64,000 nucleotides of DNA from an uncultured Desulfobulbaceae bacterium (GTDB taxonomy: Bacteria > Desulfobacterota > Desulfobulbia > Desulfobulbales > CALZHT01). The stretch is from the NCBI GenBank assembly GCA_945787445.1, contig CALZHT010000013.1:54079-118078 (forward strand), read 5' to 3'. The translations under genes and the position numbers were made by a program. Under the pieces are notes generated by a model. The model was not told the DNA's origin. It searched no databases and saw only the letters and a program-made list of their open reading frames with translations. Shown one piece after another: positions 3,422-60,069 of this stretch; position 1 is the first letter of the stretch, and every line of letters starts with the position of its first letter.

Positions 3422-5056
3422 ATGATAACCGCATCTAATCTTGCTCTCGCCTATGGCAAGAGGGTCATCTTCCAGGACGTCAATATCAAGTTTACCCCTG
3501 GCAACTGCTACGGTCTAATCGGGGCGAACGGCGCCGGCAAATCCACTTTTCTGAAAATCCTGGCAGGTCAGCTTGAGCCTGATCGGGGCCAGATTTCCAA
3601 GGGATCGAAACAGCGCATCGCCATGCTCAACCAGGACCAGTTCGCCTTTGACGAGCACTCTGTTTTTAATACTGTGATCATGGGCCATAAAAAGCTCTAC
3701 AAGGTGATGGCCGAACGGGAGGCTCTCTATGCCAAGGCTGATTTTACCGAGGAAGACGGCATCCGTTCCGGAGAACTGGAGGCAAAGTTCGGTGAAATGA
3801 ACGGCTATGAGGCAGAGGCAGAAGCTGCGGTGCTGCTAAACGGCCTCGGCATCCCGGAAGAAATGCGTCAGAAAAGGATGAAGGAGCTTGACGGCAGCGA
3901 TAAAGTACGAGTGCTGCTGGCCCAGGCCCTGTTCGGCAATCCGGATATCCTGCTGCTGGACGAGCCTACCAACCAGCTGGATCTGCAGACCATCACCTGG
4001 TTGGAGGATTTTCTCTCCCGCTTCCAGAACACCGTGATCATCGTCTCCCATGACCGCCATTTTTTGAACCAGGTCTGTACTCATATGGCGGATATCGATT
4101 ATGGCAAAATTCAGGTCTATGTCGGCAACTATGACTTCTGGCATCAGGCCAGCCAACTCCATTTCCGCCAGAAGGAGACCGAAAGCAAAAAAGCCCAGGC
4201 CAAGGCTGAGGAACTCAAGGAATTCATCCAGCGTTTCAGTTCCAACGCCTCCAAGGCCAAACAGGCCACCTCACGGAAGAAGCTTCTTGAAAAGCTCACC
4301 CTGGAGGACATGCCGATCTCCTCCCGAAAATATCCCTACATCGTTTTCCAACCGGAACGCCCCTGTGGAGACGTCATTTTGGAGATCAATAATCTTTGCA
4401 AAGAGATCGACGGGATTTCCATGTTTAAGGATCTCACTCTCACTGTCAACAAGGGGGACAAGATAGCCTTTGTCGGGGCTAATAGCCTGGCTAAAACCAC
4501 CCTGTTTCAGATTTTGGCCGGAGAGCTTGCGCCGGACAAAGGCAGCTTTCGTTGGGGAGTAACCATCAATAGCTCCTATTTCCCGAAAGAGCATAATGCG
4601 TATTTCAATGATGAAGAGCTTAATCTTATTACCTGGCTGCGCCAGTTTGCACCTCCCACGGAGCATGAGAGTTTTGTTCGGGGGTTCCTGGGCAAAATGC
4701 TTTTTTCCGGGGAGGAGGCGATGAAAAATACCTCAGTGCTTTCCGGTGGCGAACGGGTGCGCTGCATGCTCTCCAAGATGATGCTCTCCGGCGCTAACGC
4801 CCTTATTCTCGACGAGCCCACCAACCATCTTGACCTGGAGTCAATCACCTCATTGAATAACGGCCTGATGGCTTTTCCGGAGGTGGTACTCTTTGCTTCC
4901 CATGACCATCAGTTTGTGTCCACAGTGGCAAACCGGATTGTCGAAATCACTCCGGACGGCATCATCGACGTGATGATGGACTTTGACGAGTACCTGGCAA
5001 TGAAGGAAGCGAGTCTGTCCGAAGAGAATGAATACTCGGACAGTCAGGCAGCCTAG
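3422..5056 (+). CDS. ybiT: ABC-F family ATPase, YbiT-like
   Basis: Two ABC domains (GANGAGKST, LSGGE, LLLDEPTN). Collinear with E. coli YbiT as I recall it (QDQFAFDE, VIMGH, HDRHFLN, CTHMADIDYG). Start moved to ATG 3422 (MITASNLALAYG), with GAGGA upstream. Confidence 0.9.
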   Translation: MITASNLALAYGKRVIFQDVNIKFTPGNCYGLIGANGAGKSTFLKILAGQLEPDRGQISKGSKQRIAMLNQDQFAFDEHSVFNTVIMGHKKLYKVMAEREALYAKADFTEEDGIRSGELEAKFGEMNGYEAEAEAAVLLNGLGIPEEMRQKRMKELDGSDKVRVLLAQALFGNPDILLLDEPTNQLDLQTITWLEDFLSRFQNTVIIVSHDRHFLNQVCTHMADIDYGKIQVYVGNYDFWHQASQLHFRQKETESKKAQAKAEELKEFIQRFSSNASKAKQATSRKKLLEKLTLEDMPISSRKYPYIVFQPERPCGDVILEINNLCKEIDGISMFKDLTLTVNKGDKIAFVGANSLAKTTLFQILAGELAPDKGSFRWGVTINSSYFPKEHNAYFNDEELNLITWLRQFAPPTEHESFVRGFLGKMLFSGEEAMKNTSVLSGGERVRCMLSKMMLSGANALILDEPTNHLDLESITSLNNGLMAFPEVVLFASHDHQFVSTVANRIVEITPDGIIDVMMDFDEYLAMKEASLSEENEYSDSQAA

Positions 5057-6529: not shown

Positions 6530-7699
6530 TCAGCCTAGCCAATCGGATTCAAACAGCATTTTCCAGGGGATCACGGTAATATCTCCAAGTTGATAAGGAA
6601 GTGCGGCAGTGGAAACACAGACAGGCTTTACCTGAGGATAATCATTTATGAACGATTTGAGGCCTCGTAAATCCTGAGCGCGCACGTTGGCGCTGGATTT
6701 TATTTCAATCGCCCAGGTAATCCCTTCCTTTTCAACAACAAGATCGACCTCTGCGCCGTGTGAACTTCGCCAATGGTAAACTTGAAAATCGTATGCCAGG
6801 GAGGAGAGGATCCGAAATACTTCAAGGATAATGAAATGCTCGAATAATCTTCCATAAACCGTTGGTGTCTTGATGGCTTCATAGCTTGTCCGACCGGTGA
6901 GGCTGTTGATCACCCCCAGATCAAACAAATAATATTTAGGATGGCGAACCAGCCTTTTGCGCATGCTTTTAAGATACGGTTCAAGTTTAAGGGCTACAAG
7001 ACTGTCTTCGAGGATTTGATAATATCCTTGGACTGTTTTGCTATTGACGCCTGTCTCTCTGGCAATAGTGGAGTAGTTGACAATATTGCCGCTCTGGTCC
7101 GCAGCAATTGAGAGGAATCTGCTGAAGGCCGGAATATTTCTGACCAGAGCTTCATCAAGTATTTCTTCTTTGAGATAGGTGTTGGTATAAGCCCGCAAGG
7201 TGCGAAAGGCATCCCTGACTTCTTCCTGGATGAGTGGGGGCAAACTCCCTTTGAGAAGAGTTTCATCCAAGGAAAATTTCTTACCAAGCTCAATATGGGT
7301 AAGGGGGTGCAGAGACAATTCCCAGGCCCGTCCAGCAAGTAGATTTACAGAGCCTCTCCTCAGCTTCCTGGCGCTGGAGCCGGTCAGGATGAAAAAGAAC
7401 CTTCCTTGATGGGTTTCAAGCAGGTAGTGAATTCCATTGAGTAAATCAGGCACTCTCTGGATTTCATCAATGAAAACCGTTATCGTCTCCATCCGTTTAA
7501 GGGCATATTCTAATTCTCTCCTTAGAATTGACGGCTCGGCTTTATATTTGAGAAATTCATCGGTTAAAAGCAAATTGATGGCAATGTGTTCTTTTCCCTC
7601 CAACACTTTCTGGACCAAGGTGCTTTTGCCTACCTGGCGTGGGCCCAGCAAAAAGAAACTTTTTCTGTCAATGGGAAGACTGATCATTCTGGGAATCAT
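6530..7699 (-). CDS. AAA-type ATPase with C-terminal DUF4143-like region
   Basis: 389 aa. Walker A is GPRQVGKST. The overall pattern matches the AAA_14 plus DUF4143 ATP-binding protein family (from memory). Confidence 0.75.
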   Translation of the reverse strand: MIPRMISLPIDRKSFFLLGPRQVGKSTLVQKVLEGKEHIAINLLLTDEFLKYKAEPSILRRELEYALKRMETITVFIDEIQRVPDLLNGIHYLLETHQGRFFFILTGSSARKLRRGSVNLLAGRAWELSLHPLTHIELGKKFSLDETLLKGSLPPLIQEEVRDAFRTLRAYTNTYLKEEILDEALVRNIPAFSRFLSIAADQSGNIVNYSTIARETGVNSKTVQGYYQILEDSLVALKLEPYLKSMRKRLVRHPKYYLFDLGVINSLTGRTSYEAIKTPTVYGRLFEHFIILEVFRILSSLAYDFQVYHWRSSHGAEVDLVVEKEGITWAIEIKSSANVRAQDLRGLKSFINDYPQVKPVCVSTAALPYQLGDITVIPWKMLFESDWLG

Positions 7700-11277: not shown

Positions 11278-11388
11278 ATGCGACTCCTTTATAGAACGAG
11301 ATTAGGGTTGCGTTGTTGCGTTATGTACCTATTAAAAGTAAAAAATGAAAAATTAGAAACTATTTTTTTATCAAAGATGATTTATACG

Positions 11389-11479
11389 TGAGGAGTGAGA
11401 AGTGAGGAGTGAGGAGTGAGGAATGAGGAATGAGGGGTGAGGACTGAGGACTGAGGACTGAGAGGTGAAGGGTAAAAGG
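11389..11479 (+). repeat. tandem heptamer array TGAGGAN x 12-13 (family D)
   Basis: Read directly: TGAGGAG TGAGAAG TGAGGAG TGAGGAG TGAGGAA TGAGGAA TGAGGGG TGAGGAC x3 TGAGAGG TGAAGGG TAAAAGG. The array ends 6 nt before the nitroreductase ATG. Confidence 0.95.
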
Positions 11480-11485
11480 AACCAT

Positions 11486-12031
11486 ATGGAATTTTCAGAG
11501 TTGATAACGATCAGGCAGAGTGTCAGAAAGTATCAGGACAGACCGGTAGAAAATGAAAAAATTGCGCAGTTGATCGAGGCGGTCCGCCTGGCTCCGTCTG
11601 CCAGTAATTCGCAGCCTTGGAAGCTTATAATTGTTAATGAATCCGGCCTGAAGGATAAAGTGGCCAGAGCGACATTCAGTAAACTTGTCTCATTCAATAA
11701 ATTTGCCCCGCAGGCCCCAGTTCTTGCTGTTTTGACCATAGAAAAACCAAAGGTCATCACCCAAATAGGCGGCAGACTGAAGGATAGGGAATTCCCTTTG
11801 ATCGATATCGGCATTGCAGCCGCACATTTTTGTCTGCAGGCTGCGGAATTGGGACTGGGGACATGTATGCTCGGCTGGTTTGATGAGGCGGCAGTAAAAA
11901 AGCTTTTGCATATTCCGGAGAAAACGAGAATTGGCCTGGTGATCGCCTTGGGGTATGCTGCGGCAGGTTATCCCTTGCGGAAGAAAATACGTAAGGATGT
12001 CAAGGATATGGTGAGCTTCAACAGCTATTAG
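11486..12031 (+). CDS. nitroreductase family protein
   Basis: MEFSELITIRQSVRKYQDRPV...APSASNSQPW, the typical nitroreductase N-terminus. Start moved to ATG 11486. Confidence 0.85.
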   Translation: MEFSELITIRQSVRKYQDRPVENEKIAQLIEAVRLAPSASNSQPWKLIIVNESGLKDKVARATFSKLVSFNKFAPQAPVLAVLTIEKPKVITQIGGRLKDREFPLIDIGIAAAHFCLQAAELGLGTCMLGWFDEAAVKKLLHIPEKTRIGLVIALGYAAAGYPLRKKIRKDVKDMVSFNSY

Positions 12032-12036
12032 CCAAT

Positions 12037-12177
12037 ATTCAGATCTCCTGAACTCGAGGATTTACGATGATACCAGCGTTGATAATCTCCGTACGGAAGA
12101 GTGCCTAAAGTTTGAAGTGCCTAAAGTGCCTAAAGTTTAAGAATTTATCTAATCAGAAAAGTACCATAACTTTAGGC
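12037..12177 (+). repeat. family B hairpin element, copy B1 (right arm truncated)
   Basis: 5' module ATTCAGATCTCCTGAACTCGAGGATTTACGATGATA..TTGATAAT, then a left arm of AGTGCCTAAAGT units, a loop, and a right arm that stops at AACTTTAGGC. Confidence 0.85.
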
Positions 12178-12651
12178 GGTGTATTCGAATTCATCTGCGA
12201 GTTTGGCTTCACCATGAACCACTTTGGTCTTAACCGTGTATGACCCTGCGGCCTTGAAATCCACATCGGCCCCGTATCCGCCGGTCATTGCCATGGTCAT
12301 GGCCTTTTGTTTGTTTCCGTCGGATGAAGTGACCAGGTAGCCCACTTTGGCATCCTTGATTTTCTCGCCCTTGGGCCCTTCAATGTAAAGCATGAGATGG
12401 TGAGATTTCATGTTCTCCATGGCGTCGGCGGCCATGGTGTGTTTTTGATCCATAGTGGCCATCTTTTCCTTCATGTCGATCAGGTGGTAGGCAAAGGTGA
12501 AGCCGTCAACCTTGGTGGTCCTGATGAGTTTTCCCATATGGGCGGAATGGTCCATTTTATGGCCCTGATGTCCTTCGGACATTGCTACTGCTTGGGCGGC
12601 AATGATAAGCCCGCACATCATCAGTAAAGAAAGAAATTTTGTGATTTTCAT
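12172..12651 (-). CDS. periplasmic His/Met-rich putative metal-binding protein
   Basis: Signal peptide MKITKFLSLLMMCGLIIAAQAVA, then HQGHKMDHSAHMG and several M/H clusters. Strong RBS AAGGAG before ATG 12651. Last gene of the efflux operon. Confidence 0.7.
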   Translation of the reverse strand: MKITKFLSLLMMCGLIIAAQAVAMSEGHQGHKMDHSAHMGKLIRTTKVDGFTFAYHLIDMKEKMATMDQKHTMAADAMENMKSHHLMLYIEGPKGEKIKDAKVGYLVTSSDGNKQKAMTMAMTGGYGADVDFKAAGSYTVKTKVVHGEAKLADEFEYTA

Positions 12652-12741
12652 ATGGTTCTCCTTATGTAGTGGTATGTTTTGCATGGTTTGAATATCCGGT
12701 GTCGGTGTTTTCACCAACACGGTAAGTATTCTTGCTTAGAT

Positions 12742-19588: not shown

Positions 19589-20964
19589 GGCACGGTCCCC
19601 TCTGCTTGGTTCCCGGTTGGTTCGATGCTGGTGAGGCCTCGGCCGCATAACCTTTCCAGGCGGGCCAGGAATTTGCCATAGTCGGCTTGAGCCCGGGCCA
19701 GGGAAAGTTGAAAATTATACACCGTGGCCTGGATCTCAAGCAGATCGGCAAAGCTCCCCTGGCCTTCACGCTGCCAGGTTTCCATGGATTCCAGACTGCG
19801 GACGGCTTGGGGCAGAAGTTCCTGTTCATAAAGAGAGACAAGGCGTTGAGCATTCCTGAGGCGGAAGAACATCTCACGGATGCCTGCATTTGTCCTGTTA
19901 ATTGTTTCGTTTTTCAAGGCCAGGGCTTTTTCCGTGCCGGCGCCGGCGCGGTCCAGGCCGCTTTTATTTTTTCCAAACCAGAGCGGGATGGTCATACCTG
20001 CCTGGACGCCTACCGCATCTCGGCCTGCGTCCTTTGGCGGCGAGAGAACATCAGGATCGCCTATCTCCGCATAAAAAACGCCGACCTTGAAATCCGGTAA
20101 GAATCCATATCCAGCCAGTTTCTTTTTGATTTTACTTTTCCGGTATTGCAGGTCAGCACTTTGAATTTCTTCACTGTTTTTCTGGGCCAATTGATAGATT
20201 TCCTCAAGGTTGTATACAACCGGACTTATTGTTGTCCCTGACAATCTGCCGATAACCGCATGAGGATCACGGTTCAGCAGGGTGTTCAGTTTGGTTTTTT
20301 CCGTCTGTTCAAGTTCCTCGAGCAGTAAAATATCATAGCGCAGCTGGCCAACCTGGGCCTGGGCCTTGACCACATCAGCCAGAGTGGCATGATCTTCTGC
20401 ATAGGAAGTCTCCGAGATCTTTCGGAACTGCTCGAGCAGTTCGTTGTTTCTGGCGGCAATCTTTTTTGCTGCCTGGATGTAAAGGAGTTCGTGGTAGGAC
20501 TCCCGAATGCTGACGATCATATCCCGCACTGCCTTGTCCAGTCCGAGCCGGGCTATCTTGGCATCGGTTGCTACAATGGCGCCTTTCTTGGTCAGTTTAC
20601 CTGGAAACGGGATCTGCTGGGTCAGGGTGGCGTTCCAATCCTGGGGCCCCAGTCTGGTCTCAATGGGATCGGTGAAATAGGTGACCATCACTTGCGGATC
20701 AGGGTAGCCGCTTTCCAGCCGATAGCGTTCAATCTCCATGCGCCATGTCTGGCGTTGTGCCGCAACGGTTTGGTTGTTCCGGTATCCATAGGCAATTAGA
20801 TCCGCAATGGCCGGGCCCCCAATAACTTTCTGTTCGAGGTCCATGCTGTTCTCCGCACCTTGGAGAGGTGCGGCACATCTCAAGAATAATGCAGTAACAA
20901 GGGTGAGGGAGAGAAGGATATGTTTTATAGTAAAGCGTCGGGGAGCATGAGCTGTTATATTCAT
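19585..20964 (-). CDS. TolC-family outer membrane efflux protein (paralog 1)
   Basis: 459 aa with a signal peptide and OMF-like repeats (YPDPQV, GPQDWNATLTQQIPFPGK). First gene of the operon. Confidence 0.8.
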   Translation of the reverse strand: MNITAHAPRRFTIKHILLSLTLVTALFLRCAAPLQGAENSMDLEQKVIGGPAIADLIAYGYRNNQTVAAQRQTWRMEIERYRLESGYPDPQVMVTYFTDPIETRLGPQDWNATLTQQIPFPGKLTKKGAIVATDAKIARLGLDKAVRDMIVSIRESYHELLYIQAAKKIAARNNELLEQFRKISETSYAEDHATLADVVKAQAQVGQLRYDILLLEELEQTEKTKLNTLLNRDPHAVIGRLSGTTISPVVYNLEEIYQLAQKNSEEIQSADLQYRKSKIKKKLAGYGFLPDFKVGVFYAEIGDPDVLSPPKDAGRDAVGVQAGMTIPLWFGKNKSGLDRAGAGTEKALALKNETINRTNAGIREMFFRLRNAQRLVSLYEQELLPQAVRSLESMETWQREGQGSFADLLEIQATVYNFQLSLARAQADYGKFLARLERLCGRGLTSIEPTGNQAEGTVP

Positions 20965-21041
20965 TACTGATTTCTTGATTTCTATTTTATGTCCTTAGTA
21001 TGTAATTATTGTGAAAGGATAGCATCAGCGTCTTTATAAAA

Positions 21042-21056
21042 GCAATACTGATGCCA
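21042..21056 (-). promoter_or_regulatory. sigma-54 (-24/-12) promoter of the efflux operon
   Basis: Minus strand reads TGGCATCAGTATTGC: GG and GC with exact consensus spacing (TGGCAY-N5-TTGC). It is about 78 nt upstream of the ATG at 20964. Confidence 0.7.
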
Positions 21057-21119
21057 TGATATTTTTTGTTTTCATTTTGAATAGTTAACTGTATCAGGTG
21101 AAATGATCCTCCAGGTTTT

Positions 21120-21173
21120 AGAGAATATTCTTTAGGTTGAATGAAGAATATTCTCTAGTGTCGTGTCACGACA
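21120..21173. promoter_or_regulatory. two palindromes, candidate enhancer-binding-protein sites
   Basis: AGAGAATATTCTT-N11-AAGAATATTCTCT is a perfect 13-bp IR at 21120-21156. TGTCGTGTCACGACA is a perfect 15-nt palindrome at 21159-21173. They lie 65-130 bp upstream of the sigma-54 promoter. Confidence 0.5.
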
Positions 21174-21348
21174 TTCAGATTTCCTGAATTCGAGGATTTT
21201 ACGATGATATGAGCATTGATAATGCCCGTAAGAGTGCCTAAAATTCGAAGTGCCTTAAGTGCCTAAAGTTAATGTACTTGTTTTGTCAGATATTCCTTTA
21301 ACTTTAGGCACTTCGAACTTTAGTGCACTTTAGGCACTTAACTCGGTA
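21173..21348 (+). repeat. family B hairpin element, copy B2 (most complete)
   Basis: Same 5' module as B1. Left arm is GAGTGCCTAAAATTCGAAGTGCCTTAAGTGCCTAAAGTTA. Right arm is TAACTTTAGGCACTTCGAACTTTAGTGCACTTTAGGCACT. Confidence 0.9.
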
Positions 21349-21470
21349 TCAAACAATTTCCTATAGGGTCCCTCTATCTCCTCAATATTATGTCATGAGG
21401 TCAGCAGTTCTGACATTAGTGTTTGGCATCACATGTCCTCATAGGGACAAGGGAAAATATTGATTTCATT

Positions 21471-21992
21471 ATGGATGCGCTTTTTACCATCGGGCATTCC
21501 AACCACAGGCTGGTTGCTTTTATTGAGATGCTCAAAGCCAAGGCTATTGAGGTGGTTGTGGATATCCGCTCGGCGCCGTATTCCCGCTATGTGCCGCAAT
21601 ACAATAAAGCAGAGATTGCCAAGTCCCTCGAGGAAACGGAATTGCAATATCTTTATTTAGGAGATGGCTTGGGCGGCAAACCAAGGGATCCAGGGATAGC
21701 CGCGCTTCCTGTAGAAGAAAAATATGTACGAATTGCAGAGTCGGCCCAGTTCCAGCAGGGCCTTGATCGGTTGGAAAAAGGACTTGCTGCCGGCTGGCGA
21801 ATTGCACTCATGTGTGCGGAGGAAAATCCCTTAAAATGCCACCGGCACATGCTTGTTGCCAGAGAACTCGAGCTGGTCCGCCATGTTCCGGTCTATCATC
21901 TCCGGGTAGATGGCACTTCATTGCGGGCGCTCAAGAAGCTGGTTGACAGCCCGGAACAAATGCGGTTGTTTAATCGGGTGCATAGGCTTTGA
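21471..21992 (+). CDS. DUF488 family protein
   Basis: MDALFTIGHSNH...VVDIRS.P.SR...CAEENPLKCHRH, the pattern typical of DUF488. Start moved to ATG 21471. Confidence 0.75.
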   Translation: MDALFTIGHSNHRLVAFIEMLKAKAIEVVVDIRSAPYSRYVPQYNKAEIAKSLEETELQYLYLGDGLGGKPRDPGIAALPVEEKYVRIAESAQFQQGLDRLEKGLAAGWRIALMCAEENPLKCHRHMLVARELELVRHVPVYHLRVDGTSLRALKKLVDSPEQMRLFNRVHRL

Positions 21993-25190: not shown

Positions 25191-25210
25191 TGTCTTTGTG
25201 GTAATAGTCT

Positions 25211-25457
25211 CAGTTAAGGTAAGTACCCCTTCCTTTCAATTAGGCAGCTTTAGGTCGTATTTGTTATTTTCGTGCTCGTGCGCGTAATCGTGTAATCGAT
25301 TTTCCTTGTATTCATAATCAAACACAGAATGCTTCCTTTTCAATTACGATTACGATTACGAGCACGAAAACGTTACAAACGGATCTTTTTGACCCGTATC
25401 CGGACTTTCAGTCCTTTGCATTCAAAATCCATCGTCTTCAGACGGAGGCTGTTGGGT
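25211..25457 (+). repeat. family A structured element, copy A1
   Basis: Aligns over its full length with A2-A4. It carries 3 CGATTA-type units and 1 AGCACG unit in the right arm. Confidence 0.9.
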
Positions 25458-27043: not shown

Positions 27044-27050
27044 ATTGTCG

Positions 27051-27315
27051 CAGTTAAGGTTAATACCCCCCTGCCTTTCATGCAGGCAGCTATAGCTCGT
27101 ATTTGTTGTTTTCGTGCTCGTGCGCGTAATCGTAATCGATTTTCCTTGTATTCATAATCAAACACGTAATGCTTCCTTTTCGATTACGGTTACGGTTACG
27201 GTTACGATTACGATTACGAGCACGAGCACGATACAAACGGATCTATTTGAGCCGTACCGGACTTTCCAGTCCTTTTTATTCAAAACCCACCGTCTTTAGA
27301 CGGAGGTTGTTGAGT
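27051..27315 (+). repeat. family A structured element, copy A2
   Basis: Full-length copy with 6 CG(A/G)TTA units and 2 AGCACG units. Its last 36 nt overlap the 3' end of the ykgJ-like ORF. Confidence 0.9.
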
Positions 27316-27861: not shown

Positions 27862-28018
27862 AATAAAGACATATTGATCAGCCTGAAGAAGAGAAGCAGG
27901 ATGTGCTTTTCAGCAAGCCGCGGAAAGTTTCATTCTTAACATGGAATTCATTTCGGTTCAAATTATGTTTGACAATCCCTTTTCAAGCTTGCCAAGATTT
28001 TAGTGAGGTCAAAATATG

Positions 28019-28261
28019 TGGCAGCCGGCTTAAGCTCGTATTTGTTATATTCGTGCTCGTGCGCGTAATCGTAATCGATTTTCCTTGTATTCATAATCAA
28101 ACACGTAATGTTTCCTTTTCGATTACGATTACGATTACGATTACGATTACGATTACGATTGCGAGCACGAGCACGATACATACGGGCCTATTTGACCTGT
28201 ATCCGGACTTTCTAGTCCTTTTTATTCAAAACCCACTGTCTTTAGACGGAGGTTGTTGAGT
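28019..28261 (+). repeat. family A structured element, copy A3 (5' hairpin module missing)
   Basis: Aligns from GGCAGCCGGCTTAAGCTCGTATTTG to GGAGGTTGTTGAGT. It has 7 CGATTA units plus 2 AGCACG units. Confidence 0.9.
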
Positions 28262-32236: not shown

Positions 32237-32290
32237 GGTATTTTTTCCTCTAATATTTTTAAGGTGCTTTCCCCTGGTTTTTATTCGTCT

Positions 32291-32524
32291 CAGGTAAGGG
32301 TAATACCCCTGCCTTTCAGGCAGGCAGCTTTAGCTCGTATTTGTTATATTCGTGTTCGTAATCGTAATCGATTTTCCTTGTATTCATAATCAAACACGTA
32401 ATGCTTCCTTTGCGATTAGGAGCACGAGCACGAGCACGATACAAACGGGTCTATTTGATCCGTATCCGGACTTTCAGTCCTTTTCATTTAAAAACCCACC
32501 GTCTTTTGACGGAGGTTGTTGAGT
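32291..32524 (+). repeat. family A structured element, copy A4
   Basis: Full alignment with A1-A3. It has 1 CGATTA unit and 3 AGCACG units. Confidence 0.9.
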
Positions 32525-35623: not shown

Positions 35624-35673
35624 GCAGAAGGCAGAAGGCACAAAGGCAGAAGGCAGAAGGCAGAAGGCAGAAG
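35624..35673 (+). repeat. heptamer array GCAGAAG x7 (family C, copy C1)
   Basis: Read directly. One variant unit is GCACAAA. Confidence 0.9.
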
Positions 35674-35792
35674 TAAAAAGGCAGACGGCGCATATTAAGC
35701 GGGGCTGCGGGGTAGACCAATAATCTGTGAGTGTCCGCCAATATCCATCTGCCGGGCTTCTTAAGGCCTCACCAAGGCTCAAGGCGGAAAGA

Positions 35793-42260: not shown

Positions 42261-42346
42261 AGAAGGCAGAAGGCAGAAGGCAGAAGGCAGAAGGCAGAAG
42301 GCAGAAGGCAGAAGGCAGAAGGCAGAAGGCAGAAGGCAGAAGGCAG
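42261..42346 (+). repeat. heptamer array AGAAGGC x12 (family C, copy C2)
   Basis: 12 perfect units read directly. It lies about 290 bp upstream of the transglutaminase operon start. Confidence 0.95.
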
Positions 42347-42409: not shown

Positions 42410-42598
42410 CGCAAAAAGTCGGGAAAGCGGTTAACGCGCCATGTAATTTCAACTGGTTACAAGGTTATGCATCGGTGAACTGGCAATAGCTTTGCTAGTA
42501 AGCATGGCTGAACTTATCGCCCGTTTCATCGCAAGGAACCAAAGTGGTCAACGCGTCCGCGTAGCAGACAAATCGTATTTTTTACGATTTCATCAATA
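42410..42598 (+). repeat. family F element, long form (shell plus core), copy F1
   Basis: CGCAAAAAGTCGGGAAAGCGGTTAACGCGCCATGTAATTTCAACT...AAATCGTATTTTTTACGATTTCATCAATA. The core is at 42474-42571. Confidence 0.9.
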
Positions 42599-42847: not shown

Positions 42848-42925
42848 TGGGGTGAGCGAGGGGACTTGAACCCCCGACCTCCGGGGCCACAACCCGGTGC
42901 TCTAACCAGCTGAGCCACGCCCACC
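42848..42925 (-). tRNA. tRNA-His (anticodon GTG)
   Basis: Reverse complement GGTGGGCGTGGCTCAGCTGGTTAGAGCACCGGGTTGTGGCCCCGGAGGTCGGGGGTTCAAGTCCCCTCGCTCACCCCA. It has the extra 5' G(-1) typical of tRNA-His. CCA is encoded. Confidence 0.92.
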
Positions 42926-50129: not shown

Positions 50130-50318
50130 TATTGATGAAATCGTAAATAATACGAGTTGTCTGCTACGCGGACGCGTTAACCGCCTTGATTTCTTGCTAT
50201 GAAACGGGCGATAAGGACAGCCATGCTTACTTGCAAAGCTATTGCCAGTTCATCGATGTATTACGTTTCAACTAGTTGAAATTACATGGCACGTTAACCG
50301 CTTTCCCGGCTTTTTGCG
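50130..50318 (-). repeat. family F element, long form, copy F2
   Basis: Its reverse complement aligns with F1 over the full length. The core is at 50157-50255. It fills the gap between the convergent murJ and rsmE. Confidence 0.9.
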
Positions 50319-51154: not shown

Positions 51155-51276
51155 GCATTGATAATAAAGTGCCTAAAGTTATGGTACTTTTCTTATAAGA
51201 CTATTTTCAGTGCCCCCTTGAGGGGTATAAATCCTTTAACTTTAGGCACTTTAAACTTTAGCTCACTTTAGGCACT
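51155..51276 (+). repeat. family B hairpin element, copy B3 (5' module truncated)
   Basis: GCATTGATAATAAAGTGCCTAAAGTT, then a loop, then TAACTTTAGGCACTTTAAACTTTAGCTCACTTTAGGCACT. Confidence 0.85.
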
Positions 51277-51367
51277 TCTTTTAGGCTGCAATTTTTTAGC
51301 ATCTACACGTAACAATAGCTGCCGAGTCCTGGTTATCTGAACTAAGAATGTCAAAGTTGGATTTTCC

Positions 51368-53708: not shown

Positions 53709-53745
53709 AGTGCATGTGGGCCGAGGAATTTGTATAAACTACAAA

Positions 53746-53844
53746 TTGTCTGCAACGCAGATGCGTTGACCACCTAGATCCCTTGCGATGATCCAGGCGA
53801 TAAGTCCAGCCGAAATTTTTTGAAGAACTATTGCCAATTCATCG
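53746..53844 (-). repeat. family F core alone, copy F5
   Basis: Aligns with the core segment of F2 (TTGTCTGC.ACGC...GCGTT.ACC...GGCGATAAG...CTATTGCCA.TTCATCG). The shell termini are absent. Confidence 0.75.
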
Positions 53845-54025
53845 TTGTTCTGTCTTGTAATCTAATGAATGAACCAGGAAAGAAGAATCAAGCGAACAAT
53901 GAACTACCCCACAAAGAGGTTGCGGGATAGTTCATATACTTTTTGAACACGATCAGCGAGCACATTCCCCGCAGGTTACGCTTCGCGTGCGCAAGCGGCC
54001 GGGGGGAGCTTCAAATCAATACCTT

Positions 54026-54352
54026 TTAGTTGACAACAAATGTTGCCGGATATCGCGTTTCATTGCCGTCGGTATCATAGGCAGACAATTTGAAAGTCTT
54101 GGGCTGGACCTCATTATCAATACCACATTCCATTTTTAAGGCATGAATGTCTTCTGTGGCGCAAATAAGGCTTCCCCCTGCCTGGTATAGCCGCAAACCT
54201 TTTATTTCATCATCCGTATTTTTGTCATATTCCCATTTCACTGTGACTCTCGATGTGTCCGGATTTACGTTGAAGGCAGCTTGCTTTCCTTCACCTACAA
54301 GGCAAGCGGTTAAAAGCAATGATATTGCCAGAAGAATGAATACCTGTTTCAT
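54026..54352 (-). CDS. small lipoprotein, 108 aa
   Basis: MKQVFILLAISLLLTAC lipobox, followed by a beta-rich (Ig/FN3-like) sequence. Confidence 0.6.
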   Translation of the reverse strand: MKQVFILLAISLLLTACLVGEGKQAAFNVNPDTSRVTVKWEYDKNTDDEIKGLRLYQAGGSLICATEDIHALKMECGIDNEVQPKTFKLSAYDTDGNETRYPATFVVN

Positions 54353-54506: not shown

Positions 54507-54999
54507 GTCTACAATACAATTTAACCTTACCATTTCGGCAGCTCCTCCATCCTGAAGTTCAGAACAGGTTGCTTTGCGTCATCCGGTTACCCGGATTTTG
54601 CCTTTTCGATGGTGTCGCATTTTGCTTGAAATGAATACCCAGCAAATAATTCTTAAAATTTTAGCAGGTTTCATGTCTACAGAAAAGAAAAAAATAGATA
54701 AATTATATACCTTGTAAATGTTATGGAAAAAAATGAACAAGAGCCTTGGAATGGATTGTAATAATGGCGGAAAGAATACGAGTGTGTTTTTTTTACCACA
54801 ATTTGTAGCGCAGAATATGCGTAATTTGCATTTGCAGCACAACTTTCTAAGCACTTGAATTTTCAAAGTATTTTTTATGCTTAAAGACAAAATAACCTTC
54901 TTGGAAGAAGGTGGCCCAGTTTTTGCTTACTAAGATAAAATCATTGTTGTGTCAGTTTGTCTACAATCAATCATTAGTGCCGTAAAAGGTTTATACGAT

Positions 55000-58365: not shown

Positions 58366-58455
58366 AAAAATCGTAAAAATAAGATTTTATCGATATCTTA
58401 TGCTGTAACTAGTTGAAATTACATGGCGCGTTAACCGCTTTTCCGGCTTTTTACG
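58366..58455 (-). repeat. family F element, short form (shell only), copy F3
   Basis: Reverse complement CGTAAAAAGCCGGAAAAGCGGTTAACGCGCCATGTAATTTCAACTAGTT...ATCGATAAAATCTTATTTTTACGATTTTT. It lies between the DUF948-like and ytxH genes. Confidence 0.85.
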
Positions 58456-58461
58456 AGACCA

Positions 58462-58851
58462 TCATGTTTTGGTTTTGCCAGATTTGGTGAAAAAATGGGT
58501 AAAGGCTTTTACTCCAGCATAAAAACCGCCAACTTGGGTTGCAAGGGGTGTAACTGTATTTTTCAGAATATGAGTAGTAATGAGAAGAGTATCTGATGAT
58601 TGTTTTACCGTCTCGATTATCTGATCAGTTTTGTTCACTTTATCATTAAGTGAGGATGTCAGTTTTTGCAGTTCGATTGAAGTTTGCGAAAGCGATTTGA
58701 GAAGAGGCCCAATCTCTTGATTTATAGTATCGAAGAATGCTTCCGCCTTTCGGGCGCTGCGGCTTATCTGAAGAATGGCAGGAGCAAGAACCCCAACCAA
58801 AACAGCAAGGCTGATTATGACGATAACCAGAAAAAAATCAAAAAGCGTCAC
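58462..58851 (-). CDS. DUF948-like membrane-anchored coiled-coil protein
   Basis: N-terminal TM (FFLVIVIISLAVLVGVLAPAIL), then a helical region. Start tentatively GTG 58851 behind AAGGTG; the track start is TTG 58905. Confidence 0.6.
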   Translation of the reverse strand: MTLFDFFLVIVIISLAVLVGVLAPAILQISRSARKAEAFFDTINQEIGPLLKSLSQTSIELQKLTSSLNDKVNKTDQIIETVKQSSDTLLITTHILKNTVTPLATQVGGFYAGVKAFTHFFTKSGKTKT

Positions 58852-59793: not shown

Positions 59794-59972
59794 GAATTTT
59801 TACCGAAGCCATTGATAAACATTACAATTTTCCATCATGCTGCTGCAACGCTCAAATAAAAAAAAGATTAATGCAGCGGCTGCTCTTGTGGATTTTGCTA
59901 TGAATTGCACCTTGATTTGTAGTATATTTTTAAATGGTTATAGTGAGATTGCATTATACAATATTGACGATA

Positions 59973-60069
59973 CGGCAAAAAGTCGGGAAAGCGGCTAACG
60001 TGCCATGTAATTCAACTTTTTTCAACGTTATACATCGATAAAATCGTATTTTTTACGATTTCATCAATA
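59973..60069 (+). repeat. family F element, short form, copy F4
   Basis: CGGCAAAAAGTCGGGAAAGCGGCTAACGTGCCATGTAATTCAACT...ATCGATAAAATCGTATTTTTTACGATTTCATCAATA. It lacks the ~100-nt core. Confidence 0.88.

Follow-up and report, generated by a model that had tools for sequence, protein, structure and literature searches.

Three repeat-armed hairpins among chromosomal genes

The sequence considered here, referred to as the window, is a 64,000-nt stretch (positions 54,079 to 118,078) of contig CALZHT010000013.1, from assembly GCA_945787445.1 of an uncultured Desulfobulbaceae bacterium. Amid ordinary chromosomal genes it carries three intergenic copies, B1, B2 and B3, of a repeat that we call family B, in which two inverted arms made of short tandem units face each other across a centre. 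B1 is located where a nitroreductase gene and an unassigned open reading frame (ORF) converge, between their 3' ends. B2 is flanked by a TolC-like efflux gene and a DUF488 gene, and B3 by rsmE and kdtA; in both cases the two genes diverge away from the element. An earlier, sequence-only reading of this DNA had proposed three such copies, with three units in the left arm and one in the right arm of B1, three and three in B2, and one and three in B3. Both the positions and these counts were borne out (Table 1), and the copies belong to a genuine repeat family with inverted arms made of repeat units. Just one other record of this organism exists, the essentially equivalent assembly GCA_945787035.1 (L116; an L with a number labels a fetched locus or contig throughout); it contains the same B3 and is 99.9% identical over 4.3 kb.

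If up to one mismatch is allowed, the window contains 11 matches to GTGCCTAAAGT, where 0.85 would be expected; none of 100 shuffled sequences reached this number, and all 11 fall within B1, B2 or B3. Tandem Repeats Finder (TRF) reports one period-9 array in each copy (Table 1). The long hairpins of the sequence-only reading are a property of B2, whose left and right arms pair as a stem of about 40 bp in a stable fold (-45.7 kcal/mol, z = -7.0 against shuffles), but not of the other two copies: the stem of B3 is about 17 bp (z = -3.1), and that of B1, at 11 bp (z = -1.2), cannot be told apart from shuffles. Nor are long hairpins typical of the family, since in 125 elements the arms pair perfectly over a median length of only 12 nt, and the two arms do not mirror each other in unit order; B2 is unusually well paired relative to the rest.

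A conserved 5' module had also been proposed to precede the hairpin in all three copies. B1 and B2 do share such a module (51 nt, 88% identity), but B3 retains only GCATTGATAAT, and the module does not stand beside the hairpins at 115 other loci. We therefore rejected it as a part of the family; with its own small hairpin it looks like a separate neighbouring module, outside the widespread family. Directly to the left of the module of B2, at 21117-21175, are a perfect 13-bp inverted repeat, AGAGAATATTCTT...AAGAATATTCTCT, and then the palindrome GTCGTG-T-CACGAC, so that B2 sits in a cluster of small hairpins.

The centres of the window copies form a subfamily whose nearest relatives are L076 and L099, with a centre that is a decayed palindrome around CTGATCAG. 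One half of this core is kept in B1 and the other half in B2 and B3; because different halves are kept, both direct and inverted similarities are seen between copies. An apparent inversion of the loop between B1 and B2 or B3 was rejected on these grounds.

Table 1. Parts of the three family B copies, in window coordinates
Feature	Coordinates	Strand	Description
B1 5' module copy	12037..12086	+	Begins 5 nt past the stop codon of the nitroreductase gene (11465-12031)
B1 left arm	12100..12136	+	3 forward units; TRF period 9, 4.3 copies
B1 centre	12137..12168		TTAAGAATTTATCTAATCAGAAAAGTACCATA; retains the other half of the palindromic core (TCAGAAAAGTACCATA)
B1 right-arm remnant	12169..12177	+	ACTTTAGGC; overlaps the stop codon (12172-12174) of the minus-strand ORF 12172-12720
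B2 5' module	21173..21223	+	Has small hairpin TTCAG-ATTTC-CTGAA; common to B1 only
B2 left arm	21233..21269	+	3 forward units, AGTGCCTAAAAT / TCGA / AGTGCCTTA / AGTGCCTAAAGT; CTAAAGT towards the centre
B2 centre (loop)	21270..21300		TAATGTACTTGTTTTGTCAGATATTCCTTTA; degenerate half of a quasi-palindromic core, compare L076 and L099 (...TTTTCTGATCAGAAAA...)
B2 right arm	21301..21339	+	3 reverse units, ACTTTAGGCAC / TTCGA / ACTTTAGTGCAC / TTTAGGCACTT; TRF period 9
B3 module-tail remnant	51155..51165	+	GCATTGATAAT; remaining 5' module missing
B3 left arm	51167..51179	+	One forward unit, AAGTGCCTAAAGT
B3 centre	51180..51238		59 nt; core half TATGGTACTTTTCTTATAAGA and an extra GC mini-hairpin, CCCC-TTGA-GGGG
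B3 right arm	51239..51277	+	3 reverse units; TRF period 9, 4.4 copies; 91% identity with the B2 right arm

Occurrence in other genomes and in a phage

We scanned one genome per species with the arm-loop-arm pattern AAGTGCCTAAAGTT-N27-57-AACTTTAGGC, which matches all three window copies. At least 115 contigs elsewhere carry the family, so that the copies are not restricted to the window. Taxon names are the submitters' own labels, and the following counts are among the matches listed: about 65 contigs are labelled Desulfobacterales or other 'Deltaproteobacteria', 16 Planctomycetota (mostly Scalindua), 15 Bacteroidota and 7 Nitrospirota, with one each from Calditrichia, Nitrospinaceae and Pseudomonadota, six that are unlabelled and three labelled as archaeal. 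An identical 24-nt arm string is found in contigs labelled Desulfobacterota, Planctomycetota, Bacteroidota, Nitrospirota and Calditrichia. Several matches are on contigs of 0.2-1.6 Mb (labelled Deltaproteobacteria, Bacteroidetes, Planctomycetia, Calditrichia and Scalindua), and misbinning is therefore no explanation for the spread across bacterial phyla.

The archaeal labels fared differently. One of these contigs (L017; JAIWFS010000037.1, from the metagenome-assembled genome (MAG) 'archaeon isolate JL_RS_05_5') encodes Rho and a PBP1A-family (class A) penicillin-binding protein and is thus bacterial, its label or binning being wrong. Archaeal spread is accordingly rejected for this contig and unproven for the remaining 'archaeon' contigs, including the ANME-2-labelled L006; the loops of the 'archaeon'-labelled contigs cluster with Desulfobacterales loops.

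The matches also include one viral contig (L117; IMGVR_UViG_3300037587_000914), which encodes capsid, cement and Mu-like portal proteins and has two family B hairpins, at 2585-2641 and 6897-6971, between structural genes. Their loops cluster with those of Planctomycetota and Scalindua, a sequence resemblance that suggests the host of the phage and a possible vehicle of transfer.

The distribution is patchy. One copy was present in 642 kb of sequence from 80 metagenome loci carrying homologues of the efflux gene (25-61% protein identity), compared with three in the 64-kb window. For the B1 and B2 sites the closest metagenome relatives share 55-59% protein identity, which makes them uninformative for orthologous sites. 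The efflux protein encoded beside B2 itself has no entry on record. A BLAST search with B2 against plasmid and phage collections gave no match.

Anatomy and conservation of the arms

The fetched loci contain at least 130 copies, all ascertained by the exact 24-nt arm pattern. Elements are 60-180 nt long, and each arm holds one to four units. The unit is a constant CTAAAGTG, written (T)AAAGTG...CT, around a variable middle of 2-3 nt, which by falling frequency is CC, AGC, AAC, AC, CGC, TC or ATC. Units recur with a period of 9 nt in 114 cases and 10 nt in 81, and not with the 10-12 nt first proposed; a short unit of 7-8 nt, AAGTTYG, occurs occasionally. Polarity is nearly fixed: 130 clusters run forward then reverse, with CTAAAGT pointing inwards, against one that runs reverse then forward. 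The centres measure 9-103 nt, are on average more self-complementary than shuffles, and often resemble an A/T-rich palindrome with a small GC hairpin on one side, such as GCGAAGC or its variants GTGAAAC, GCGCAGC and GCGCTGAAAGCGC. One subfamily carries a different end module, CCTAACCCGGATAAACCGGAA.

Loops cluster by lineage while the arms are the same throughout. One cluster comprises 41 loops (38 of Desulfobacterales type and three unlabelled), one of seven is Nitrospirota only, and another joins five Planctomycetota loops to the two phage loops. When orthologous copies from two Scalindua genomes were compared, 81 of 81 arm bases were identical, against about 63% identity in the loop and 76% in the flanking 2.7 kb. 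A second orthologous pair shows the same trend, and a third does not. Ascertainment by an exact pattern inflates arm conservation, yet 57 of the 81 bases in the Scalindua pair lie outside the pattern.

Intergenic position and the absence of strand bias

None of 76 classifiable copies lies within an ORF. The flanking genes are co-directional for 54 of these copies, convergent for 14 and divergent for eight, and many copies nearly fill the intergenic gap, with both genes no more than 10-100 nt away. Among the genes that have a copy on either side are tgt, OTCase, fliFGH and similar genes. All-against-all clustering of 1,676 ORFs from 115 loci revealed no conserved neighbour gene; it returned housekeeping families only, with aminotransferases, radical SAM enzymes and kinases among the common neighbours.

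Many copies stand just 3' of stop codons, between co-directional or convergent genes. Such a position might be expected of an element that acts as RNA, whether as a terminator or attenuator, as a stabiliser of mRNA 3' ends like some repetitive extragenic palindromic (REP) sequences, or as a small RNA or protein sponge with repeated CUAAAGUG; B2 and B3 do fold better than shuffles, and loops contain small GC hairpins with GAA or GAAA loops (GCGAAGC; GTGAAAC, GCGCAGC). We consider a role of this kind improbable. In keeping with the sequence-only reading, family B corresponds to no Rfam family at the gathering threshold, at which the whole window yields only two tRNAs and a c-di-GMP-I riboswitch; for the B2 region, relaxing the search to E <= 10 yields only meaningless sub-threshold microRNA and small nucleolar RNA scores. 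No T-run follows the stem, which is succeeded by TTAACTCGG in B2 and by TTCTTTTAGG in B3, and a terminator scan of 20900-21550 calls two unrelated small hairpins and not B2. The pairing between arms is about 12 nt and the order of units is not compensatory. Relative to co-directional genes, 20 loops are co-oriented and 19 anti-oriented, and a second marker of polarity divides 9 to 15. The location of some copies within operons, fliFGH for example, speaks against strong termination. The lack of strand bias, the lack of a T-run, the copies within operons and the short pairing together argue against a strand-specific RNA role and for function or recognition at the level of DNA.

A DNA-level reading that also starts from the position directly after ORFs is that the elements are integron attC sites, or other site-specific recombination sites, folded as single-stranded hairpins. 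The copies are imperfect palindromes of 60-140 nt, and the inner arm, GCCTAAAGTT...AACTTTAGGC, is superficially like class 1 attC cores, which read GCCTAAC...GTTAGGC. This identity is very improbable. The R''/R' AAC/GTT triplets (RYYYAAC ... GTTRRRY) are not at corresponding positions in B1-B3, the flanking genes are housekeeping genes and not cassette arrays, no integrase gene was seen among the examined genes of the window and loci, and the tandem multiplicity of units has no attC counterpart. Family B thus fails the defining features of attC sites, as it does those of intrinsic terminators and of Rfam families.

Other candidate sites were tried and rejected. A sigma-70 promoter can be written for B2 as TTGATA-17-TAAAAT, but the two boxes are 21 nt apart in B1 and 10 nt apart in B3. 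Resemblances of the units to the CIRCE operator, to the Haemophilus uptake sequence (AAGTGCGGT), to sigma-54 promoters and to KorB/ParB sites were dropped, since spacing and symmetry both disagree.

Gain and loss at gene junctions, and copying of whole segments

The sequence-only reading had suggested looking for insertion polymorphism between strains, and presence/absence differences were indeed found between related carrier genomes. Three element-bearing insertions of 239-273 nt in L097 correspond to gaps of 1-11 nt in L051, a relative that is 92% identical. Two efflux genes separated by about 300 nt in L119 abut or overlap in several relatives (4-16 nt; L130, L134 and L142). Whole segments have also been copied: the MAG CSMAG_383 has four copies with pairwise identities of mostly 90-96% (one pair 82%) over about 220-300 nt, and their left arms vary from one to four units. 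Near-identical copies that differ in unit number point to a recent round of copying, after which slippage occurred.

Frequently the element forms one part of a small-hairpin mosaic. In both L097 and CSMAG_383 it is found inside a composite of about 230-255 nt bounded by CCNGGNCC-N4-GGNCCNGG hairpins; these hairpins show an enrichment of about 27-fold in the neighbourhood of family B copies. Two L097 composites of about 255 nt (2316-2575 and 4360-4625) can be aligned end to end, with the family B hairpin in mid-element, a GC hairpin that resembles a terminator, T-run included, and CCTGGNCC...GGNCCAGG hairpins at the ends. Both occupy operon junctions that are empty in L051, each flanked by a possible TAAA duplication. 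Some otherwise orthologous or paralogous copies differ in whether they contain a mini-hairpin of 26-30 nt. A 26-nt insert, ATCCGCCACCGGTCTTTGGCGGAT, interrupts the right arm of the L051 copy (about 4620-4650) and is missing from the orthologous L039 copy, and a 30-nt CCGCC...GGCGG hairpin is present in two of the four CSMAG_383 copies (the L008 and L081 composites).

A third type of repeat-armed hairpin, with heptamers GGTGTCA and CTGACAC, adjoins a family B copy in L039 (about 2700-2950). It is missing at the orthologous L051 and L097 sites.

Variation in unit number raises the alternative that the inverted arrangement is a by-product of replication or repair: solitary tandem arrays, of which this genome has many, would be made inverted by fold-back or template switching, and the family would reflect recurrent mutation together with ordinary duplication. 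The window does contain solitary 7-nt arrays (GTGAGGA, GCAGAAG and AGAAGGC), two further types of repeat-armed hairpin have unrelated units (the hexamers of family A, described below, and the GGTGTCA heptamers of L039), and unit number differs between near-identical copies. Independent origin, however, cannot give identical arm strings of at least 24 nt in many phylum-labelled lineages; nor can it explain lineage-specific loop families on common arms, or whole elements at tight gene junctions with no precursor array in relatives. We regard this account as quite improbable.

The principal alternative is that the copies are host nucleoprotein sites, serving as operators or architectural sites for a global regulator or for a nucleoid protein such as IHF or HU, and kept for host use. 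A period of 9-10 bp approaches one turn of the helix, and the units keep a fixed polarity; the centres are quasi-palindromes rich in A/T; orthologous copies retain their arms while their loops drift; and there is no bias by transcription strand. An equivalent proposal was made for analogous sites of Geobacter in a genome paper (PMC2700814). Against this, copies stand at convergent and tight operon junctions of unrelated housekeeping genes, with only 8 of 76 between divergent genes, and presence or absence differs between related genomes. Copies form mosaics with other small hairpin modules, are very patchy even in related organisms, and have recently been duplicated as whole segments of about 230 nt, non-arm parts included. 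Host use as the primary explanation is in our view unlikely, although it is compatible with mobility, since a mobile element can recruit a host protein.

A dispersed non-autonomous element as the favoured interpretation

The reading that we favour, at a probability of about one half, is that family B is a dispersed, non-autonomous and insertion-polymorphic intergenic element of the kind represented by REPs, bacterial interspersed mosaic elements (BIMEs) and miniature inverted-repeat transposable elements (MITEs), with arms that are arrays of recognition units. It draws on the observed dispersal, presence and absence at given sites, fixed polarity, exclusively intergenic position, conservation of the arms and lack of strand bias. 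Protein binding, a mechanism of transposition and the identity of a mobilising enzyme are steps that we infer, as follows. A forward array of one to four units with a 9-10-bp period, facing an A/T-rich centre and followed by the reverse array, would present two sets of recognition sites to a trans-acting protein, either a transposase or recombinase or a recruited nucleoid protein. The bound protein might join both arms across the bendable A/T-rich centre, and the element would act as DNA and not as a strand-specific RNA. After insertion, unit number would shift through slipped-strand mispairing, and long perfect palindromes would decay to asymmetric forms such as the 3/1 arrangement of B1 and the 1/3 arrangement of B3. 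The general instability of palindromes is the basis for this last proposal.

Several observations weigh against this interpretation. About 1.5 Mb of flanking sequence yielded no autonomous element, transposase or other partner gene. In the same limited sample no ORF is bracketed by a forward and a reverse array, and the solitary arrays examined there are degenerate or large-loop copies. For simple copies no clean target-site duplication or terminal signature was discerned, nor was a duplication seen at the CSMAG_383 composite; the possible TAAA duplication was seen only at the larger L097 composites that carry the element inside. Perfect orthologous arms across 24% divergence are unexpected for a dead selfish insert and fit a host-used binding site at least as well, as they also fit concerted evolution. 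The apparent conservation of the arms is inflated by the exact 24-nt pattern used for ascertainment, and the phylum labels are the submitters' own, one 'archaeon' contig being bacterial.

Comparison with known systems

The closest description is that of the paired tandem-repeat 'putative global regulator binding sites', classes 1-3, of Geobacter metallireducens (Aklujkar et al. 2009, PMC2700814). These are multicopy intergenic sites in which three to five tandem repeats of 7-9 nt are paired on opposite strands at a variable distance; the units are GTTGCTYN x4 (24 pairs), TCTCCGTS[Y] x3 (21 pairs) and MTYCTGA x5 (8 pairs). Insertion sequence (IS) elements stand at a fixed distance from some sites, and the sites are there reported as unique to one genome. 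Family B belongs to the same architectural class, with its one to four units of 9-10 nt, centres of 9-103 nt and intergenic position. The view that it is of an undescribed type therefore holds for the absence of an Rfam match but not wholly for the architecture, which this account had already listed. On the published description, the Geobacter unit sequences are unrelated to AGTGCCTAA. Whereas the account cited places its sites in a single genome, family B is spread over many phylum-labelled lineages, and in contrast to the IS elements mentioned there, no IS was seen beside family B copies. We conclude that family B is an undescribed sequence family in a loosely described architectural class, with an arm unit kept across several phylum labels and a phage. 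A full-text literature search with the unit sequence returned chance primer matches only, and a keyword search for MITEs in Desulfo, Scalindua or ANME returned no papers.

REPs, BIMEs and REPINs are short, non-coding extragenic palindromes that often occur as inverted doublets forming hairpins and make up mosaics together with other motifs; excision and insertion polymorphism is documented, and REPINs are mobilised by RAYT transposases (Bertels and Rainey 2011, PMC3116915). REP units are imperfect palindromes of about 20-40 nt, each type tied to the RAYT gene that it flanks, and are largely lineage-specific and vertically inherited (PMC3116915). A REPIN consists of two REPs in inverted orientation, and REP sequences co-evolve with their RAYT. 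Family B likewise is an extragenic inverted doublet with mosaic clustering. Its units, however, are non-palindromic direct repeats of 9-10 nt (AGTGCCTAA), and inverted symmetry exists only between whole arms; moreover, its arm string crosses phylum labels, in contrast to the largely lineage-specific REPs. No RAYT gene was present among the ORFs examined in the window and the fetched loci, a sample that falls short of whole genomes.

With bacterial MITEs, such as Correia/NEMIS, Nezha and Chunjie, family B shares small size (below about 600 bp), non-coding content, inverted ends, dispersal, intergenic position and presence/absence polymorphism, and some copies lie within the composite of about 255 nt, which ends in inverted hairpins and may be flanked by a TAAA duplication. 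It differs in that no parent IS with matching ends was found and no clear target-site duplication was seen at simple copies, and in that its inverted repeats are tandem arrays of variable copy number in place of a single terminal repeat.

Among eukaryotic elements, foldback (FB) transposons have long inverted arms of short tandem subrepeats, variable in number, around a short or absent centre, and Ac/Ds and CACTA elements have subterminal repeat arrays whose subrepeats bind the transposase. The likeness of family B to foldback, Ac and CACTA elements is architectural only: these are eukaryotic and much larger, and no homology or common enzyme is implied. By analogy, family B, and family A and similar elements by their architecture, might be a prokaryotic counterpart of foldback transposons, with arms that would bind a horizontally transferred DNA-binding or recombination protein, phages as one vehicle, passage across phyla, and retention at orthologous sites for an architectural or regulatory benefit that the bound protein would bring to the host. 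We offer this broader proposal tentatively and consider it doubtful.

Cyanobacterial genomes, reportedly in work of Elhai et al. from 2008, are rich in solitary heptamer arrays (short tandemly repeated repetitive sequences, STRRs) and in hairpin inserts of 21-27 nt nested in repeats. Comparable features here are the 26-30-nt hairpins inside family B elements and solitary heptamer arrays in the window, though both the phylum and the sequences differ.

If the arms are arrays for one protein, they would offer a handle on a DNA-binding or mobilising activity common to several lineages of anoxic sediments, namely Desulfobacterales, anammox Planctomycetota, Bacteroidota and Nitrospirota, and could also account for the uncharacterised 'paired tandem-repeat' sequences in Geobacter genomes. 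By filling tight operon junctions, providing stop codons and travelling on a phage, the elements matter for gene calling and operon prediction; they are also relevant to breaks in MAG assembly and as markers of horizontal exchange between co-resident lineages. Should family B be merely another selfish intergenic palindrome, its description would be useful annotation but no surprise.

Other repeats and features of the window

Family A, in which the sequence-only reading had recognised a parallel plan, is a repeat-armed hairpin too. Its copies, at 25202-25457, 27044-27315, 27983-28260 and 32282-32523, are composites of about 270 nt. The central hairpin has arms of the hexamers CGATTA and GAGCAC, a conserved 42-nt loop and a right arm of three to eight units, and is flanked by the hairpins CCTGCC-TTTC-AGGCAGG, GGACT-TTC-AGTCC and CCGTC-TTTA-GACGG. 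Nearby ORFs are an assortment of small genes, none of them a mobility gene.

Solitary intergenic heptamer arrays without a nearby inverted partner are GTGAGGA x10.7 (11388-11462) and GCAGAAG x9.3 (35624-35689); AGAAGGC x12.3 (42261-42346) is likewise solitary and is 100% perfect. These arrays are reminiscent of the cyanobacterial STRR arrays.

A further repeat family of about 190 nt is represented within 18 kb by five or more copies, full or partial (42410-42598, 50130-50318, 53723-53869, 58386-58464 and 59960-60069). The first two are 189-nt inverted repeats of each other, 89% complementary and 7.5 kb apart, and one copy of the family lies close to a tRNA gene (42851-42924). The c-di-GMP-I riboswitch aptamer is located at 54534-54612 on the minus strand and scores 61 bits against a gathering score of 35.

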